Part shown: positions 6,171-18,341 of the stretch, one piece after another | How positions within the stretch are numbered: position 1 is the first letter of the stretch | Layout: every line of letters begins with the position of its first letter | NCBI GenBank assembly: GCA_045863395.1 | Contig: BTVJ01000126.1 | Coordinates: forward strand, 1-18,387 | Length of the DNA: 18,387 nucleotides | Source: Myxococcales bacterium | GTDB taxonomy: Bacteria > Myxococcota_A > UBA9042 > JABWCM01 > BTVJ01 | Reading direction: 5' to 3' | The notes under the pieces: model-generated | Seen by the model: the letters and a program-made list of their open reading frames with translations, nothing else | What the model was told of the DNA's origin: nothing | Databases searched by the model: none | Position numbers and translations under genes: made by a program

Positions 6171-6174
<4 letters not shown>

Positions 6175-8840
6175 CGTCGTTGCCCCTCGATCTGAGGATC
6201 GCTCGTGGACAGGCGCGATGCGCGCCGGTCTGCGGCGATGATCAACGCCTCCATGTAGGCGAGCGCCCCGGGCCCATGGCGGGCGACCAGTCCGAGAGTG
6301 CGCTCCCGCCAGCTCCGTCCGGTGCGGCCCGACAAACCGAGAGACGCAGGCGAGAGGCTGAGCGTGAGAGGTGGCAGGGGGGCCTCGTCTGTGCCCATCA
6401 CGATCCCTGGCAGCTCGTCTCCTTCTCGCACGCCGCGAATCGGGAGCCCACGGCCGTCGTGATTGCGGTGGTCCTGGTCCTTGGGCGCAGCGTGCAAGGC
6501 CACGCGCACCTTGCCGTGGTGGCTCAGCACCAGGTAGGCGAGCAGATCGAACTGCTCGGCAGAGCAGGCGAGGATCTCCCGCTCGATCACGGACGGGGTG
6601 TCTGCGAGCGGCTTCCGCGCAGAGAGTCCGAGCGCCTCCAGCTCGTCGGCGCAGCCACCGAGCAGGGCTGAGTGTGTCGGCGCGTATCTTTCGAGGATCG
6701 CGAAGAGGGCCAGGGCGCTCGCGAGCTCGTGGCGAAAGCCCGGGCGCGCGTCACGTTTGGTCACCTCGTAGCGCCCTGACGGACGCACCCACTCGCCATT
6801 GGGGGCCTTGGCCAGGTCCGGACGGTCGGGTCGCTTCTCGCTCCGGATGATGCTCTGAAACGCCGGGTGGGACTTGCCGTAGTCATGCCACCGCGCCGCC
6901 AGCGCCAGGAGCTTCGCCAGCTCCTCTGGCAGACACGTCTCCCGCGCGATCACCGCTGCGACCTCGGCGGCTTCGGCGCCGTGCGTGGTGATCGTCTTCC
7001 ACTGCGACACGCTGAGAACCTCGGCGTCCTGGCTGTCATCTGCCAGATCCTGCGCTGGCGCTTCTGTCAGATTCTGCGTATCGGGGGCCGCCACCGGCGG
7101 TACCCGTGCAGCGGAGGTGGGTGCGAAGCCGACTCCGAGGTCGTAGCCGCCGGAGTCCGCGGCGACACATACGATTCTGCCAGGGAGCAGCGAGGCGCGG
7201 GTGGCCACCACCCACTCCCCGTCAATGAAATCCCACACCCAGGCGCTCATGGCGGAGCGGAGCCTGGGCGCCCGCTTCGTGGACGTCTCCTTGCCGCACA
7301 GCCAGTCGCGAGCGGCGAGGAATGGCACGGCGCACAGCTCGCGACGCAGGGGGCGCCGCGTCGGCGAAGGCGCCGTCTTGGGTGGCAGGTCTGCCCAGAA
7401 CACCTGCACGTCGCGCTCGTCCCCGCTGCGGATGAAGCGGCTCACGTCGAGGTCGGCGCCGGTCAGGTCGGGGGTCGTGTCGAACAGCTCTTCGAACTCG
7501 GAGCGCCGAAGCAAGTGAGACGCCGCATAGGGATAGAGCGCGTCACGGGCCGACGCGGAGAGAGATTCCTCGAAGGCGTCGAGCGCTGCCAGTCCAACGT
7601 CGGTGAGCGCCTGGAGGGCCTGCAGGGCGGCCTCGAGCTCTTCTGATGAGTAGGGGCGGCTCGCACGTTCGTCCGTGCCGCGATCCACCACCGTGACCTG
7701 GCCGCTTCCGCCGTACCGTGCGCAGCGCCCGAAGCGCTGGACCAGGCTCGGCCAGGGCGCAAGCTCAGTGATGAGGCGGGTGGCGGAGATGTCGACTCCC
7801 GCCTCCACGACCTGGGTCGCGATGATGATGCGGTCCGTGGTCTTGGAGCAGGCGGCGCGGCACAGGACGTCCTTTCGCCACCGCTCCCGCTCCGCGGGTC
7901 GGAAGCGGCTGTGCACGAGGTGCAGCTCGGTCGCGCCGGCGTCCTGGCGCAGCGCCACGTAGGTGGCAGTCGCCCGTTCGACCGTGTTGCAGATCACGAG
8001 AGTGATCCGGCCGTGATCTCCGCCGTCGTTCTCCGCGTGCTCGTGCAGGACCAGGCGGGCCAGCTCGGGTGCTTCGTCAGGCGCGATCATGGCGACGCGC
8101 AGGCTCTTGTGGGTCGTGTTCTCCGGAGTCTCGCGATCACTGGCAGACAGCATGGTCGGGGCTTGGACCCACTGGGGGTGCTGCGCTGCGCAATCTACTG
8201 TATGGAGCCAGACCGATTGAAGCGTCGCGCTCATCCACCAGCTCTTGCAGGGCCGGAGACCGCGCGCCGCATCCTCGTCGCGGTAGGCCTGAAGCTGGGC
8301 GCTCGTGGCCAGCCCGACGTCCATGAGCTGCACCTCGTCCAGCACCCACAGCGCGTCCTGGCTCAGAAGACCGAACTCCATCGGCCAGCGTGCGCGGGGA
8401 GCGGCAAACCCGCGGTTCATGGCTCGGGAGAGCAGCATGTCCTGCGTGCCGACCAGAACGGCGGCCTCCTCGGGGAACAAGTTCCACTCGCCGGCATCTG
8501 CGCCGCCCATGACGAGGTGGACGCCGACTCTGCCGCGGTGGTCGCCGGTGCCATCCCAGAGCACGCCGAGTTGGTCGAACAGAGCAGCAGCCTCATCTGC
8601 GGTCTGCTCGGCCAGAACGCGCATCGGGAGAGCCCAGACCAGCCGGCGGGGCCACTCGGAGCGTTGCTGCGCGATACGATTGTACGCCCAAGCACCCAGG
8701 ACGCCCAGCGTCTTGCCGTTCCCGGTGGGGATGCGAATCAGGCGGCTGCGGCAACCGGGCTCGCCAGCGAGCGCCCGCTGCCATGCATGCGGCGACTTCC
8801 CGCTCGTGGCGACCCGGAACCAGGAATCGAAGTCGGTCAT
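6171..8840 (-). CDS. cas3: Type I-G Cas3, N-terminal SF2 helicase with C-terminal HD nuclease, 889 aa
   Basis: Walker A PTGNGKT, DEVQ, SAT, HSRFR, ATQVVEAGVDIS, QRFGRCAR; C-terminal HDYGK...FRHELAS...SHHGK...AADRRAS. GGAGG RBS at 8851-8855 on the minus strand. Confidence 0.95.
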
Positions 8841-8873
8841 GTGGTCGTCGCCTCCGAGCGTCGCAAACGTCTA

Positions 8874-8964
8874 CCTTCGATGGGGCCGCAGGGGGGCCTG
8901 CGGAAAGTGCGTCCGGCACGGCACTCGATCGCGCTGCCGACGCTGCTTCAATTGGGGCGGAGAG
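8874..8964 (-). ncRNA. Solitary CRISPR-like mini-array (pseudo-repeat 1, 37-nt spacer, pseudo-repeat 2); candidate CreA/CreR-like regulatory crRNA
   Basis: Minus strand: CTCTCCGCCCCAATTGAAGC (8964-8945; both ends of the array repeat with the hairpin missing, terminal ATTGAAGC intact), spacer AGCGTCGGCAGCGCGATCGAGTGCCGTGCCGGACGCA (8944-8908), then CTTTCCGCAGGCCCCCCTGCGGCCCCATCGAAGG (8907-8874; 7/8 identity at the 5' end, 14/16 at the 3' end, 7-bp stem kept by compensatory changes). Confidence 0.85.
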
Positions 8965-8997
8965 CGACGACCCACGATGTCTCGGCGGCGCCACGGC

Positions 8998-9066
8998 CGC
9001 CGGTTTGGACCCCGGTGACCTGATCGTTGACACGGCGCCAGCGGGACGGGTCGCCGGTTTGGACCC
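8998..9066. repeat. Two exact 15-bp direct repeats CGCCGGTTTGGACCC, 54 bp apart, each within a predicted stem-loop
   Basis: Copies at 8998-9012 and 9052-9066; stems CGGGTC/GACCCG (9047-9067) and, on the minus strand, GGTCACCGG/CCGGCGGCC (8995-9020). Confidence 0.8.
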
Positions 9067-9084
9067 GCGCTCCCAGCTCCGGGT

Positions 9085-9113
9085 GTGATCTCACAACGGA
9101 AGAGGGATGTCAA
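9085..9113 (-). promoter_or_regulatory. Candidate sigma70-type promoter for the mini-array and cas3 operon
   Basis: Perfect TTGACA (9113-9108), 17-nt spacer, TG-n then a weak -10 GATCAC (9090-9085); overlapped by the palindrome TGTGA-TC-TCACA (9084-9095). Confidence 0.45.
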
Positions 9114-9140
9114 GCGCCTTCTTCTCACTTCCTCTGCCTT
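9114..9140 (-). other. CreT-like translation start: purine-rich SD-like stretch, GTG, then AGA AGA AGG CGC
   Basis: Minus strand reads AAGGCAGAGGAA-GTG-AGA-AGA-AGG-CGC with GTG at 9128-9126. AGA/AGG are expected to be rare codons in a high-GC genome. Confidence 0.35.
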
Positions 9141-9166
9141 CACTCTTTCGTACTGCCTACACTGAA
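9141..9166 (-). promoter_or_regulatory. Predicted Cascade binding site (TTC PAM plus partial protospacer) for the mini-array spacer
   Basis: Minus strand TTC-AGTGTAGGCAGTACGAAAGAGTG versus spacer AGCGTCGGCAGCGCGATCGAGTG: 17/23 identical, mismatches at 3, 6, 12, 13, 17 and 18. Confidence 0.75.
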
Positions 9167-9220
9167 CTTCATTTTTCGGTCCATCCGGCCGGTTGGTCAC
9201 CAGCACTGCAAGTCCCGAGA

Positions 9221-9444
9221 GGTCCCGTCCCACGTGGGGCCACCCGGAGCGCAAGACCCCAGGGGTCGTGTCCCTCGTGGGGCCACCCGGAGCGCAAGAC
9301 CCCAGGGGTCGTGTCCCTCGTGGGGCCACCCGGAGCGCAAGACCCCGGGGGTCGTGTCCCTCGTGAGGCCACCCGGAGCGCACGACCCCAGGGGTCCCGT
9401 CCCTCGTGCAGCCACCCGGAGCGCACGACCCCAGGGGTCCCGTC
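9221..9444. repeat. Tandem array of about 5.2 copies of a 43-bp unit
   Basis: Consensus GGTCGTGTCCCTCGTGGGGCCACCCGGAGCGCAAGACCCCAGG; GCCACCCGGAGCGCA recurs at 9239, 9282, 9325, 9368 and 9411. Unit junctions form the palindrome GACCCC-A-GGGGTC. Confidence 0.95.
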
Positions 9445-10264
9445 AGACGGTCTCGTCGCCGCCGCCCGGCCCCTCGGGGGCGACCTTCTTCGCCTTGCCC
9501 GCGCGGCGCGCCGCGCGGTCGTCGGACAGGTCGTCGAGGTATCCGAAGACCAGGCGCTCCAGGTTGCGGGGGAGCGCCTCGTTCACGGCGATCTCGTCTG
9601 CGAGGACCGCGCGGCAGGAGCGGAGAGTGGTCAGGGTCTTCGTGCGGATCACGAACGCGCGCTTCTGGTCCTCTGGCGAGACGGTCTCCGTCAGCGCGTT
9701 GGACCGCGCCGCCAGCAGGCTGCCCACGGCGTCCGCCGCGGTCCCGAGGCCGCTCACCCAGTCCGCCATGGTGCGGCCATCGCCCTCCCACGCCACAGGG
9801 AGCTCGGCCAGCTCCGCACCGTGAGAGGCGAGAGCCTTGCCGTAGGTCGGCGCCGCCGCGGCCTGGTCGGCGTAAGAGGCGGTCTTCAAGGTGGGGCTGA
9901 GCGCGAGGCGGGCAGTCAGGTTGTCGACGCGCGCACGCACCACCTCGGGGGTGCTCGGCGCCCTCTGAATCGCCCGCAGCAGAAGCCCGATGCAGTCAAT
10001 CCACGCGTCATGCGTCAGGTCGGCCGTCGCGAGCTCATCGGTGAACGGCCGCTTTTGAGACGTGAGCGCGTCGGGCAGCGACGCGATGTCGGCCCTGAAT
10101 GTGGCGATCCTGCCTTCGTAGACCGCGCCGGTATGGGTGGAGCGCAGCACGGCAAGCGTGCTCGCCGGGTCGATCTCCGTGGCCTTCTTCGCCGTCACCG
10201 CGTCTGCGGGCGCATACAGCGCGTTCAGCCAGAGACGGATGTCGCCTATGGATGCGTCGTTCAA
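9443..10264 (-). CDS. Uncharacterised, probably all-helical protein of 273 aa located between the two cas modules
   Basis: Long ORF with GC3-rich codons and natural composition. GGAGG at 10275-10271 lies 6 nt before TTG 10264, which I prefer to the ORF-track start at 10315. Family not confidently recognised; the D..HD...SYADQA...R pattern is loosely reminiscent of DUF6261-like proteins. Confidence 0.8.
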   Translation of the reverse strand: MNDASIGDIRLWLNALYAPADAVTAKKATEIDPASTLAVLRSTHTGAVYEGRIATFRADIASLPDALTSQKRPFTDELATADLTHDAWIDCIGLLLRAIQRAPSTPEVVRARVDNLTARLALSPTLKTASYADQAAAAPTYGKALASHGAELAELPVAWEGDGRTMADWVSGLGTAADAVGSLLAARSNALTETVSPEDQKRAFVIRTKTLTTLRSCRAVLADEIAVNEALPRNLERLVFGYLDDLSDDRAARRAGKAKKVAPEGPGGGDETV

Positions 10265-10449
10265 GGAGCACCTCCCGGGGTATTGAGTCGGAGGCGATGG
10301 TAGACGAGCAGGCAACTTGCGTCCACTGAAATGAGCGCGCGGGGACCACAGGCATCATCACAGTGGATTCCGGAGACCGACCTGGCGTACCCTTCACCTG
10401 CCTGCTCCCGTCGCCACGGGGCCCCGCCCCCAAGCTTCGAGGTGCAGCC

Positions 10450-12982: not shown

Positions 12983-15900
12983 CTCTCCGCGTCTCTTGGG
13001 ACGCGGCCCCATTGAAGCAGCGTGTCCAGCAACGTCGCCATGTGTCTCCTCCGGGCTCTCCGCGTCTCTTGGGACGCGGCCCCATTGAAGCAAGCCGCTC
13101 AGCTTGCGCCGGGCCCTCATCGTCGACCTCTCCGCGTCTCTTGGGACGCGGCCCCATTGAAGCGTCAGGACCTGGAAGGTGTGCCACGGCGCCCTGCCCT
13201 CTCCGCGTCTCTTGGGACGCGGCCCCATTGAAGCAGATAGTTGCCGACTCGGGCGCGCTCCCCGTCACGAGCTCTCCGCGTCTCTTGGGACGCGGCCCCA
13301 TTGAAGCAGAATCTGGCGCCCGGACACGTACACGATGCGCCCGACTCTCCGCGTCTCTTGGGACGCGGCCCCATTGAAGCGCCCCACGGGACGAGGACGA
13401 AGAGCCACTGATCTTTCTCTCCGCGTCTCTTGGGACGCGGCCCCATTGAAGCGGGGGAGATGACGCGCCGGATCTCGTCGCGCACCTGGCTCTCCGCGTC
13501 TCTTGGGACGCGGCCCCATTGAAGCGCCATAGAATTTAGGGCAGCGTAAAGCAGATTCTTTCTCTCCGCGTCTCTTGGGACGCGGCCCCATTGAAGCGTC
13601 GAGGGCGTTGTTGATGGCGTCCTCGATGCGAGTGCTCTCCGCGTCTCTTGGGACGCGGCCCCATTGAAGCTCCGGCGTCCTGTGCGGCAGATGCTCGTCC
13701 TCTCCCGCTCTCCGCGTCTCTTGGGACGCGGCCCCATTGAAGCACGACGAACAGCCATCGGTCGTGAACCACGGCGGGGACTCTCCGCGTCTCTTGGGAC
13801 GCGGCCCCATTGAAGCCCCGTCGGTCCCACGATGCGCACGCGCCCCTTCGCGCTCTCCGCGTCTCTTGGGACGCGGCCCCATTGAAGCCGATACCTGTAG
13901 CCACTGCTCTAATCGCGTACTGGAGGTCTCTCCGCGTCTCTTGGGACGCGGCCCCATTGAAGCTTCTTCGTCTGGACGCTCGACTCCGTCGCCTCCCGGA
14001 TCTCTCCGCGTCTCTTGGGACGCGGCCCCATTGAAGCCGGTCCGTCGGCCACGGCATCGACTGCCCCGCCTCCACTCTCCGCGTCTCTTGGGACGCGGCC
14101 CCATTGAAGCGGTAGGGTTTGCTCCGTTGTCGCCGTCGGAAGGGTACCTCTCCGCGTCTCTTGGGACGCGGCCCCATTGAAGCGGATCCACGCGCATTGT
14201 GCTCTCTCCCTTGTCGTGCTTGCTCTCCGCGTCTCTTGGGACGCGGCCCCATTGAAGCGCGATCCGCCAGGTCGCGTCCAACGGCCCGGTCCTCCCTCTC
14301 CGCGTCTCTTGGGACGCGGCCCCATTGAAGCGTGAAGCTCCCGCTCCGGGAGGTGGTGGACCTCGACGTCTCTCCGCGTCTCTTGGGACGCGGCCCCATT
14401 GAAGCTACGTCTACGGAAACCGCGTGGGTTCTTAGCGCCATAACTCTCCGCGTCTCTTGGGACGCGGCCCCATTGAAGCGCACCTGTAAGGTCCGCGCCT
14501 GCAAGGTCCGCACCTTCTCTCCGCGTCTCTTGGGACGCGGCCCCATTGAAGCGCCCAGTGCTTCTTGCACTCGGCCTCCAGTTGCTCCTCTCCGCGTCTC
14601 TTGGGACGCGGCCCCATTGAAGCATCGTCATCGACGACGGCTGGACCGCCTCGGCGATGCTCTCCGCGTCTCTTGGGACGCGGCCCCATTGAAGCACGGA
14701 GCCCGCGCGCGCGACCTCCTCGGCCATCGACTCTCCGCGTCTCTTGGGACGCGGCCCCATTGAAGCCTGAGGCAGCGTCGGCTCTGGCTGCGAGATCCCC
14801 ATCTCTCCGCGTCTCTTGGGACGCGGCCCCATTGAAGCGGTCGGTGGTAAGAGCGATAATGGGTCACTCATTGCTCTCCGCGTCTCTTGGGACGCGGCCC
14901 CATTGAAGCGGCGCTTCCTCTGTTCGCAGATGCTCCGGGACCTCACTCTCCGCGTCTCTTGGGACGCGGCCCCATTGAAGCGTCCAGCGCGGAATCACGT
15001 CCTTCGCGACGCCCGCTGCCTCTCCGCGTCTCTTGGGACGCGGCCCCATTGAAGCCGGTGATGGCGGCCCATGCGTCCCAGGCGGCCCGGGTCTCTCCGC
15101 GTCTCTTGGGACGCGGCCCCATTGAAGCAAGAAGAGCCGCAAGGTGCGGGCGTAGCGTCAACCGTCTCTCCGCGTCTCTTGGGACGCGGCCCCATTGAAG
15201 CAGCGATGCCCGGGCCGCCATGGCCGACTGGGCCGGCTCTCCGCGTCTCTTGGGACGCGGCCCCATTGAAGCCCCGTCGTGTAGATCAGCACCGTCCCCG
15301 CCGCGTCCACTCTCCGCGTCTCTTGGGACGCGGCCCCATTGAAGCCGCGCCTGCTCCTCCGTCTCCCCCTCCTCCGCCGTCCTCTCCGCGTCTCTTGGGA
15401 CGCGGCCCCATTGAAGCCGGTACTCCCCCCGCGCCGCCTCCACCATGCCCTCCACCTCTCCGCGTCTCTTGGGACGCGGCCCCATTGAAGCTGAAGCGCC
15501 TGCCGACGCCGCCGGAGCCGATGAAGCCTCTCCGCGTCTCTTGGGACGCGGCCCCATTGAAGCGTAGGTGCTGTTAGGAGCTTCTACCACTGGTAGCTCA
15601 GCTCTCCGCGTCTCTTGGGACGCGGCCCCATTGAAGCCCAGCGAGCACGGTCCCTTCGGCCGGGTGGACGCGGTCCCTCCGCGTCTCTTGGGACGCGGCC
15701 CCATTGAAGCGTCGTACCGCCTCGCGGATCTCGTCCTCCGAGCACTCTCCTCTCCGCGTCTCTTGGGACGCGGCCCCATTGAAGCCTGTCTGACATGCCA
15801 GTCCTCATCACCCATCATCTTCTCTCCGCGTCTCTTGGGACGCGGCCCCATTGAAGCGTGAAGCTCCTCGCTGTTGTCGATGTAGTCGCGGATCGACTCT

Positions 15901-18341
15901 CCGCGTCTCTTGGGACGCGGCCCCATTGAAGCACGAGAGCGGCATCCAGCGAGGAGAACGACAGCGTACTCTCCGCGTCTCTTGGGACGCGGCCCCATTG
16001 AAGCGTCCAGGCGCTGGAGAATGTCTGGTGCGTACTTCGTGACTCTCCGCGTCTCTTGGGACGCGGCCCCATTGAAGCGGTCGAGTCCGAGCGCGATCCC
16101 AACGAAATGCGTTCGACTCTCCGCGTCTCTTGGGACGCGGCCCCATTGAAGCATGAAGGCCGAGGGCGACGACGTGCGCCACCGCATCTCTCCGCGTCTC
16201 TTGGGACGCGGCCCCATTGAAGCCTGTCGTACCTGGGAGGTGTGATAGGGCATCCTGACTCTCCGCGTCTCTTGGGACGCGGCCCCATTGAAGCGGTCTG
16301 ACACTACCGCCTTCGGCCTGAAGCTCCATGAACTCTCCGCGTCTCTTGGGACGCGGCCCCATTGAAGCCCGGTCTCCGGTCATGCGGCAACCATAGCTCT
16401 GCCCACTCTCCGCGTCTCTTGGGACGCGGCCCCATTGAAGCATCGAAGCCGTCGCTCAGTACTATCAACCCGTAGTTCTCTCCGCGTCTCTTGGGACGCG
16501 GCCCCATTGAAGCGGGTCGGGGGCGAGCTCCGCCGCCCGGATGCGCTTCACCTCTCCGCGTCTCTTGGGACGCGGCCCCATTGAAGCAGTTGTCAGGCGA
16601 CCCGCACATGGGCCGCGCGAGGGTACTCTCCGCGTCTCTTGGGACGCGGCCCCATTGAAGCAAGGTGCGGGAGGAAGCGGCCCGGCAGATGGACGCGGCT
16701 CTCCGCGTCTCTTGGGACGCGGCCCCATTGAAGCGCTCATTCAGGAGGCGGCCGAAGCACTCCGTCGCAGCTCTCCGCGTCTCTTGGGACGCGGCCCCAT
16801 TGAAGCTACCACTTCTTGCGCGCGCTGGAGGTGAACCCCAGCTCCTCTCCGCGTCTCTTGGGACGCGGCCCCATTGAAGCTCGCGGTCCCGCCAGCTCGT
16901 CTTGTAGTCGAGGATCACTCTCCGCGTCTCTTGGGACGCGGCCCCATTGAAGCAGGTACTGGTGCACGGCGGCGTTGAGCGCTGCCACCGTCCTCTCCGC
17001 GTCTCTTGGGACGCGGCCCCATTGAAGCTGCTTGACCGTTTCCAAGGCCCCTAGCTGCCCGTCCTCTCCGCGTCTCTTGGGACGCGGCCCCATTGAAGCC
17101 GGGCCCGCTGGTGCCACCGGCGGCATAGATGCCCTCTCTCCGCGTCTCTTGGGACGCGGCCCCATTGAAGCAGCGATGCCTGGGACGCCAGGGCCGCCTG
17201 GGACGCCTCTCTCCGCGTCTCTTGGGACGCGGCCCCATTGAAGCAAACGAGTTGGGGGGGAGCAGCCAAAGGGGGTGAAGAACTCTCCGCGTCTCTTGGG
17301 ACGCGGCCCCATTGAAGCCAACTGCCGCTCGCGAACTTCACGAGGGGCGCTGGCCTCTCCGCGTCTCTTGGGACGCGGCCCCATTGAAGCGGCTGATTTA
17401 GGTGCATATGAGAAGATTCGTACAACACTCTCCGCGTCTCTTGGGACGCGGCCCCATTGAAGCCACGAACCCAAGGGGGACGGGGGCTACGTCTCCTTCG
17501 CTCTCCGCGTCTCTTGGGACGCGGCCCCATTGAAGCGCCTTCAGGCGCTCCTGGTCCGTGAGCAGATCGATGTCTCTCCGCGTCTCTTGGGACGCGGCCC
17601 CATTGAAGCCAATGACGGTTGCCGTATCGAATGTCTCGTTCTTCCATGCTCTCCGCGTCTCTTGGGACGCGGCCCCATTGAAGCGCTCAGGTTCGCTTCG
17701 TGCAGGTCAGCTCTGCACAGGCTCTCCGCGTCTCTTGGGACGCGGCCCCATTGAAGCGCGGTGTCCCTGTTCCTGACGTCGAGGACGTTCGACTCTCCGC
17801 GTCTCTTGGGGCGCGGCCCCATTGAAGCGCCCCGAAGGCCCCGTTGAACTTGCGGAAGGGAGGGACTCTCCGCGTCTCTTGGGACGCGGCCCCATTGAAG
17901 CTCTCGACGGCGAAGTCCTGTGCGATGCCGGCACCGATGACTCTCCGCGTCTCTTGGGACGCGGCCCCATTGAAGCTTGAGGCTCTGCGGGTGGAGTAGG
18001 TAGGAACGCGACCACTCTCCGCGTCTCTTGGGACGCGGCCCCATTGAAGCTCGATGCCCCACAGGACGAGTCCGGGGCCGTAACGCCTCTCCGCGTCTCT
18101 TGGGACGCGGCCCCATTGAAGCGGTGGCAACGACGGGGATGGTGATCGGGCCGATGGACCTCTCCGCGTCTCTTGGGACGCGGCCCCATTGAAGCCCAGA
18201 TGCACATGCTCATGGCTCGCTGCGGTTGGTTCTCTCCGCGTCTCTTGGGACGCGGCCCCATTGAAGCCAGATCCGCGCAGGGTTTGCGACGCTGAGGTCC
18301 ACCTTCTCTCCGCGTCTCTCGGGACGCGGCCCCATTGACAG
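12983..18341 (+). CRISPR. CRISPR array: 74 repeats of 36 bp (CTCTCCGCGTCTCTTGGGACGCGGCCCCATTGAAGC) and 73 spacers of 35-39 bp
   Basis: Counted by hand; mean period about 72.9 bp; stem CCGCGTC/GACGCGG. Orientation is plus, based on the ATTGAAGC 3' end, the leader on the left and the degenerate last repeat (18306-18341, ending ATTGACAG). Single-base variant repeats at 15675 and 17793. Confidence 0.99.

Follow-up and report, generated by a model that had tools for sequence, protein, structure and literature searches.

A leader mini-CRISPR with a partial self-target beside the predicted cas promoter of a myxococcal type I-G locus: probable CreR-type autorepression

Introduction

Does the guide encoded ahead of the cas3g gene in this type I-G locus restrain its own cas operon, or does it keep an RNA toxin silent? 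In the window analyzed here (the whole stretch of 18,387 nt), a degenerate mini-CRISPR in the leader of the effector operon carries a spacer that partially matches a nearby site, and shortly past this site the minus strand reads GTG AGA AGA AGG. The original prediction took these letters for the core of a CreT-like toxin RNA that acts through rare arginine codons, and the whole for a bacterial CreTA addiction module protecting the type I-G system. We find that the CRISPR-guided regulatory half of this proposal stands, and that the toxin half is weakly supported: the position of the predicted promoter, the SD, the lack of a mini-ORF and the absence of the motif from eight analogous loci speak against it. 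We favor CreR-type autorepression of the cas operon by Cascade, directed by the leader mini-CRISPR, and assign this reading a probability of roughly 0.6; this figure and our grading of the other readings are judgements and were not computed.

Results

The locus and its mini-array

The window comprises a complete type I-G CRISPR locus from a genome of 8.77 Mb with 70.9% GC. In a profile search, the genes of the effector operon matched TIGR02621, TIGR04113, TIGR02570 and TIGR02165 above the models' own cut-offs, and on the plus strand a cas4/cas1 fusion and cas2 precede the main CRISPR array.

6171..8840, minus strand: cas3g, first gene of the effector operon cas3g-cas8g1-cas7g-csb2 (8840 to 1315)
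12983..18267, plus strand: main CRISPR array, 72 repeat-core matches, 36-nt repeat

The nearest relatives of the Cas3 protein in the GTDB genomes and metagenomes searched share at most 64% identity with it. Viral contigs contained no Cas3 relative, and Rfam gave 0 matches across the window.

Ahead of cas3g, at about 8980-8874 on the minus strand, lies a degenerate mini-array of the form psiR1-spacer-psiR2.

8945..8980, minus strand: degenerate repeat 1 (psiR1), with the 8-nt handle kept exactly (8952-8945) and a weak hairpin
8908..8944, minus strand: spacer of 37 nt, which is also the commonest spacer length of the main array
8874..8907, minus strand: degenerate repeat 2 (psiR2), with a 7-bp stem at the canonical position and 6/8 positions of the handle

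Split conservation of the two repeats is the signature described for CreA and CreR guides (bioRxiv 10.1101/2023.03.10.532045; PMC8501985), and the anatomy found here corresponds to it: two degenerate repeats enclose one spacer, the handle is kept in psiR1 and the hairpin in psiR2. The hairpin of psiR1 at the canonical distance reaches only -3.4 kcal/mol. psiR2 independently matches real CRISPR arrays in two other genomes (G170 and G210), and it agrees with the G210 array repeat at 30/36 positions and with the local repeat at 24/37 columns, hinting that the mini-array may have come from elsewhere than the local repeat, or may predate a change in it. An exact match to the first 24 nt of the spacer was sought in viral contigs and none was found; an ordinary antiviral origin is therefore unsupported.

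A partial self-match with the type I-G PAM

The spacer matches a site in the intergenic region from which it would itself be transcribed.

9164..9166, minus strand: PAM, TTC, which fits the TTN of type I-G
9141..9163, minus strand: self-target (protospacer) of the mini-array spacer, 17/20 pairing positions matching

Type I-G systems are reported to use a TTN PAM and an 8-nt handle, and to flip every sixth base (5+1 pattern) (PMC9638904). The mismatches between guide and target at positions 6, 12 and 18, that is, at every sixth base, agree with this flip pattern; further mismatches fall at positions 3, 13 and 17, of which position 3 lies in the seed. The site at 9163-9141 is the sole TTN-PAM site in the genome with 17 matches, and four genomic sites reach 17 matches when the PAM rule is dropped. 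Within the intergenic region, 17 matches were reached by 0/20,000 shuffled guides and by 0/72 array spacers. The 23-nt scoring window was picked after the match had been seen; with a window-free score, none of 300 shuffles was as good. Guide and target are real, a partial self-match with the PAM of the subtype. The degenerate mini-array and a PAM-flanked match beyond shuffles thus give strong support to a guide with a self-target adjoining the predicted type I-G cas promoter, as originally proposed.

The best predicted promoter lies downstream of the arginine codons

We trained a matrix on 1,744 upstream regions from the same genome and scored promoters with it. The combination TTGACA-17-GATCAC ranks first, with 12.3 bits; the best sites of 300 shuffled regions have a median of 5.3 bits, a 75th percentile of 6.9, a 90th of 9.2 and a 99th of 12.9.

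9085..9113, minus strand: top-scoring predicted promoter for leader, mini-array and cas3 operon (-35 TTGACA at 9113-9108, 17 nt, -10 GATCAC at 9090-9085)
9071..9107, minus strand: 13-bp inverted repeat, interrupted, whose core TGTGA-GA-TCACA covers the -10
8998..9066, minus strand: a pair of identical leader 15-mers spaced 54 nt apart; the segment holds no start codon with a usable SD

The transcription start site would lie near 9078. The predicted -35 begins 27 nt past the matched stretch and 50 nt from the first target base. Sites that combine TTGACA with a -10 of comparable score are about 8-fold denser outside coding cores (80 in 5.64 Mb) than within them (22 in 11.9 Mb), a difference that base composition may partly explain. 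The 12.3-bit score derives almost wholly from the -35. The -10, GATCAC, is atypical, with both conserved T residues absent, as in 9/183 high-scoring TTGACA sites, and a consensus promoter scanner run over 8800-9500 reported no promoter. A second TTGACA, on the plus strand at 9027, is not accompanied by any -10.

Upstream of the codons no candidate scores above the 6.2 bits of TGGACC-18-TAGGCA, whose class is not enriched outside coding cores (16.5 vs 18.1 per Mb). The order of elements noted originally is correct: target, GTG motif, promoter TTGACA (9113-9108), mini-array and cas3g (8840). In this order the best predicted promoter begins after the rare-codon start, and the codons would be missing from its transcript, which weakens the parallel drawn with archaeal creT-creA. 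Contigs assembled from four RNA runs included none over 8606-9239 and are too sparse to decide either way.

The TGTGA-GA-TCACA palindrome (9084-9095) over the predicted -10 is unique in the genome, and the twin 15-mers of the leader occur nowhere else in it; both are possible protein-binding sites. The longer inverted repeat at 9071-9107 could form an RNA hairpin if transcribed and serve as an operator if not.

An uncommon motif in a purine-rich tract

The letters on which the toxin proposal was built are confirmed. The minus strand reads GTG AGA AGA AGG CGC from 9128, 12 nt past the target, whose matched part ends at 9141; AAGG stands 8 nt before the GTG, at 9140-9137; and the frame from the GTG stays open, with no early stop, to a stop at 8871 (85 aa, Arg-rich).

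9117..9128, minus strand: GTG AGA AGA AGG, proposed as the core of a CreT; relative to the best predicted promoter it occupies about -50 to -39
9116..9146, purines on the minus strand: purine-rich tract, a degenerate 10-nt x3 tandem repeat (score 32) that holds the codons

The pattern RTG-AGA-AGA is found 37 times when both strands of the 8.77-Mb genome are counted, the exact 12-mer three times. Composition-preserving shuffles of three local stretches (100,000 shuffles) contained RTG-AGA-AGA in 0.19-0.61% of cases and an RTG followed by two AGR codons in 0.8-2.5%, and among the 50-nt upstream stretches of 1,292 promoter-like sites RTG-AGA-AGA occurs here only. The caveat attached to the original prediction, that AGA runs may arise by chance in a purine-rich tract, is right about the tract; yet the shuffles show the motif to be uncommon even given the local composition, which is genuine evidence for the CreT reading. 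The tract itself is extreme: its purine fraction of 0.85 is reached by only 2/1,292 promoter-like sites. The triple 10-nt repeat was equalled by 18 and 27 of 1,000 shuffles, and a degenerate tandem repeat offers a modest alternative origin of the AGA codons.

Codon usage in 4,363 long ORFs bears out the supposed rarity for AGA and not for AGG. At 0.94 per 1,000 codons, or 1.2% of those for Arg, AGA ranks sixth among the rarest, and one gene for tRNA-Arg(UCU) was found in the genome, whereas AGG, with 4.4 per 1,000 codons and two tRNA genes, is not especially rare.

Toxin features of the GTG site

The features reported as critical for CreT are a strong SD, an efficient start, two AGA codons and a stable stem-loop (PMC8501985). 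Of these, the site has two AGA codons directly after the start codon, AGA being rare in the host. The start is a GUG, and the SD is weak, as had been conceded from the outset, at -5.0 kcal/mol; a CreT would have a strong SD, or an AUG if it had none. A GUG requires a strong SD for full CreT activity and was otherwise only partly toxic in an archaeal test (PMC8501985). Duplex energies for cas3, cas8g, cas7 and csb2 are -9.5, -7.2, -10.3 and -3.3 kcal/mol, all calculated with a generic anti-SD that may not equal the host's 16S end. The value of -5.0 kcal/mol is reached by 28% of 3,000 random 15-mers, and the SD ranks 14th among those of the 37 RTG-AGA-AGA sites. The short ORF of a CreT is also absent, the frame being open for 85 codons. 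As a protein gene this 85-aa frame was rejected, with no Pfam match and a non-coding GC3 (0.66 vs 0.83 for cas3).

Stem-loops were said to follow the codons. They are present, but the stretch 9047-9140 as a whole folds no better than expected (z -0.12). The best hairpin, at 9107-9071, has -15.0 kcal/mol and starts 10 nt past the AGG, and its z of -2.38 is the best of 17 windows; among 800 GC-matched controls 13.8% did as well, as did 10.2% of 500 shuffles and 19 of the 37 RTG-AGA-AGA sites. Accessibility of the GUG was discarded as evidence because the ribosome-binding site of cas3 is equally predicted to be paired. A convincing toxin unit was sought throughout the leader by SD, start codon and fold and none was found, RNA toxins being poorly predictable.

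Guide-target pairs in other type I-G loci

A blastn search with 8836-9445 against 400 genomes of the phylum returned short matches only, and neither the target nor the codons were covered by any of them. Plasmids contained no homologue of the leader, and the collected I-G loci gave only short matches. We therefore turn to loci of similar layout: 177 distinct I-G loci including the present one, with a Cas3 N-terminus at least 35% identical and at least 300 nt of upstream sequence, after removal of duplicates. Nine of the 426 handle candidates screened had a PAM-flanked target whose score passed the threshold, in every case better than 300 shuffles, and a significant guide-target pair is thereby found in 8/176 other I-G loci.

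In six of these eight, a same-strand -35 (weak in one case) begins 16, 17, 19, 19, 31 or 34 nt past the first target base; the offset of 50 nt at the present locus is the longest of the nine. At L139, an opposite-strand -35 abuts the target and a same-strand promoter lies upstream of it; L139 and L073 have promoters on both sides of the target. At L032, the target and the start of a short ORF, one with a hydrophobic stretch, overlap. None of the eight has a start codon with tandem AGA/AGG within 130 nt, and looser patterns of a start with tandem rare codons occur at three, often over TA-rich -10-like boxes. The feature that recurs across these loci is a promoter-aimed guide and not an arginine-codon toxin. 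The eight loci are analogues with unrelated targets, not homologues, and hence lower the case for a CreT without closing it.

Several further observations concern these loci. At L073, on the minus strand 36 nt past the guide target and about 540 nt upstream of cas3, an SD of -11.6 kcal/mol and a TTG start open an ORF of seven codons with tandem ATA CTA and an early stop, the codons overlapping a -10-like box; formally, this is a better CreT candidate than the GTG AGA AGA AGG site. At L063, a Cys-rich small ORF, read by eye, follows the promoter between the target and the repeat upstream of cas3. The small ORFs of L032 and L063 could be protein cargo or toxins within a guide-controlled unit. 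L021, L052, L139, L230 and L249 each have a repeat standing alone, with a spacer that matches a site next to a predicted promoter and preceded by a TTN PAM. Another I-G clade, which made up the bulk of a family-based search for analogues, has cas3 inside the operon.

Comparison with known CreR and CreTA systems

CreR-like elements have been predicted for type I-U, which is the same as I-G (bioRxiv 10.1101/2023.03.10.532045). The main text of a mini-array survey mentions neither I-G nor I-U (10.1101/2023.03.03.530964), and a literature search with thin coverage of subscription papers found no I-G CreTA. As described for CreR, for example of the Salmonella enterica type I-E system, the element here has the structure psiR1-spacer-psiR2 with the handle in psiR1 and the hairpin in psiR2, and a partial PAM-flanked match beside the predicted promoter of the effector genes, with no convincing toxin gene. 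It differs from the reported Salmonella CreR in that the system is of type I-G with Csb2 and the target lies 50 nt before the predicted -35. In addition, the mini-array is part of the cas3 leader and has the orientation of the operon, and the guide would consequently repress its own transcript.

The resemblance to the CreT elements described for Haloarcula hispanica (with CreA) and Halobacterium hubeiense lies in a start followed by two AGA codons, AGA being rare in the host, in a guide target close upstream and in a possible stem-loop downstream (PMC8501985). Unlike the haloarchaeal elements as reported there, the site here has no strong SD, starts with GUG, lacks a short ORF and is followed by a hairpin that is not significant, and its best predicted promoter is downstream of the codons and not upstream (PMC8501985).

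The CreA targets reported for Pseudomonas aeruginosa type I-F lie with the -35 about 30 bp downstream, and there the loading of polymerase is blocked and the toxin is downstream of the start site (bioRxiv 10.64898/2026.06.02.729485). The distance of 27 nt from the target to the predicted -35 in our locus is similar. The P. aeruginosa CreTA1/2 modules are described with a canonical SD, a 15-nt ORF reading Pro-Pro-stop and a stable hairpin past the start site, and no such unit is found here (bioRxiv 10.64898/2026.06.02.729485). For the type I-F system of Acinetobacter WCHA45, the creT start site is reported to be upstream of the CreA target (PMC10097628), so that both geometries exist and the one assumed in the original prediction has a precedent. 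That CreTA, too, has a bacterial guide with a partial match and no strict seed; unlike here, its creT has an SD and a conserved ORF of 33 bp, diverges from creA and acts by means other than rare codons (PMC10097628).

Discussion

A model of guide-directed autorepression

We propose that the promoter with its -35 at 9113 transcribes the leader, the mini-array and cas3g-cas8g-cas7g-csb2. Judging from the anatomy of the repeats, Csb2 would excise from this transcript a crRNA-like guide with an 8-nt handle, a 37-nt spacer and a 3' hairpin. Cascade loaded with this guide would bind the TTC-PAM site at 9163-9141, where the match is computed and binding is proposed. Pairing would end after about 23 nt, probably too little for cleavage by Cas3, and the complex, spanning about 9166-9127, would hinder the loading of RNA polymerase just downstream, as the precedents of types I-E and I-F suggest. 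Such negative feedback would relax once crRNAs or anti-CRISPR proteins draw Cascade away. In this scheme GTG AGA AGA AGG would be untranscribed DNA between the Cascade footprint and the -35, in a purine-rich, weakly 10-bp-periodic tract, and the codons are more likely promoter-flanking DNA than part of an RNA toxin.

We favor autorepression because the guide-target match is unique, because the best promoter scores 12.3 bits against 6.2 and lies downstream of the codons, and because 6/8 analogues have the -35 after the target and 0/8 have the AGA/AGG motif. Our doubts stem from the atypical -10, the uncommon motif, the extreme purine tract and a hairpin that, as in CreT, starts 10 nt past the AGG, as well as from the poor psiR1 hairpin and the seed mismatch at position 3.

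If correct, this would be a clear case of guide-directed self-repression in type I-G, where such circuits have, in the sources cited above, been predictions only. The frequency of 8/176 I-G loci suggests that the circuit recurs in a few percent of the present Cas3 clade. The effector of type I-G reportedly includes Cas3 as a stable component (PMC9638904), which makes it a testable point how a partial self-match represses without cutting.

Alternative explanations

The strongest competitor, which we nevertheless regard as unlikely, is the addiction module: a bacterial type I-G CreTA using the archaeal trick. An RNA with a purine-rich leader, GUG AGA AGA AGG and the 9107-9071 hairpin would trap tRNA-Arg(UCU), and perhaps CCU, when Cascade is lost or inhibited, and the guide would also throttle the cas operon. 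The RNA would come from TGGACC-18-TAGGCA, with its -35 at 9183, a -10 at 9159-9154 that the guide's seed would cover and a start near 9147, or from read-through of the upstream gene. The uncommon motif, the rarity of AGA with its one tRNA-Arg(UCU) gene and the position and z score of the hairpin all speak for this, as do the atypical -10 of the downstream promoter and the upstream start sites reported for Acinetobacter creT and predicted at L139. Yet the 6.2 bits of its promoter fall within the range of shuffled regions in a class not enriched outside genes, the SD is middling among comparable sites for a GUG that even in archaea was only partly toxic without a strong one, no mini-ORF exists, 10-14% of controls match the hairpin, AGG is not especially rare, and the analogous loci offer only looser patterns (3/8). 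The bacterial CreT toxins described so far in the two reports on type I-F act otherwise than by trapping a rare arginine tRNA (PMC10097628; bioRxiv 10.64898/2026.06.02.729485). An AGA-type CreT keeps its small share of the probability in view of the atypical -10 and of a start site that is a prediction, and since neither a homologue nor a covering RNA was found; if true, it would mean that rare-arginine tRNA trapping was reinvented in bacteria to guard a type I-G system. Next in likelihood, and improbable, is a CreA guide paired with a different toxin RNA past the TTGACA promoter (about 9078-8980), free of rare arginine codons like the Acinetobacter and Pseudomonas CreT. The twin 15-mers would suit it, as would the roughly 100 nt of otherwise unaccounted leader that separate psiR1 from the predicted start site, the place that creT is reported to hold relative to its target in P. 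aeruginosa, but the four start codons in 9085-8945 have SDs of -3.0 or weaker with no stop within 25 codons, and no window of the segment folds better than z -1.44.

We also consider it doubtful, to a degree below the two toxin readings, that the mini-array is a decayed relic imported from a related I-G system, neither processed nor repressing, with 9047-9140 independent of it. The closeness of psiR2 to another genome's repeat, the feeble psiR1 hairpin and three mismatches at pairing positions, one of them in the seed, are consistent with decay; against it, the handle (8/8), the spacer length, the PAM and the psiR2 stem are all intact, in keeping with the published CreA/CreR signature, and Acinetobacter CreA is reported to function without a canonical seed (PMC10097628). 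Least likely of all is that the repressed promoter is the divergent plus-strand CTGCCT-18-TACACT, giving an RNA through the 43-nt hairpin repeats described below, antisense to the 3' end of the upstream gene. Its -10 at 9158-9163 conforms to the T-A...T consensus of the genome and falls exactly on guide positions 1-6 (the seed), and L073 and L139 provide parallels with promoters on both target sides; it scores only 5.4 bits, however, with a negative -35 term, and neither a gene nor a known RNA family was found on the plus strand there.

Sequences between the effector and adaptation blocks

The gene upstream of the leader separates the effector block from the adaptation block.

9443-10315, minus strand: 290-aa gene

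Pfam and NCBIfam searches with its product gave no match, and a homologue was likewise not found in viral contigs. Its nearest Atlas clusters are hypothetical Myxococcota proteins, a minority of them with DUF6261. Directly past its stop codon, 9208-9439 forms a tandem array with 5.4 copies of a 43-nt palindromic unit, the cores of which are essentially absent elsewhere in the genome. On either strand the array has a more stable predicted fold than its shuffles (z -2.2 and -2.9), and it is possibly a 3' stabilizing or terminating element. From the RNA runs, one 73-nt contig falls within the 43-nt repeats, and an 828-nt contig that ends at 9442 carries a copy of the 290-aa gene from a related strain, about 93% identical.
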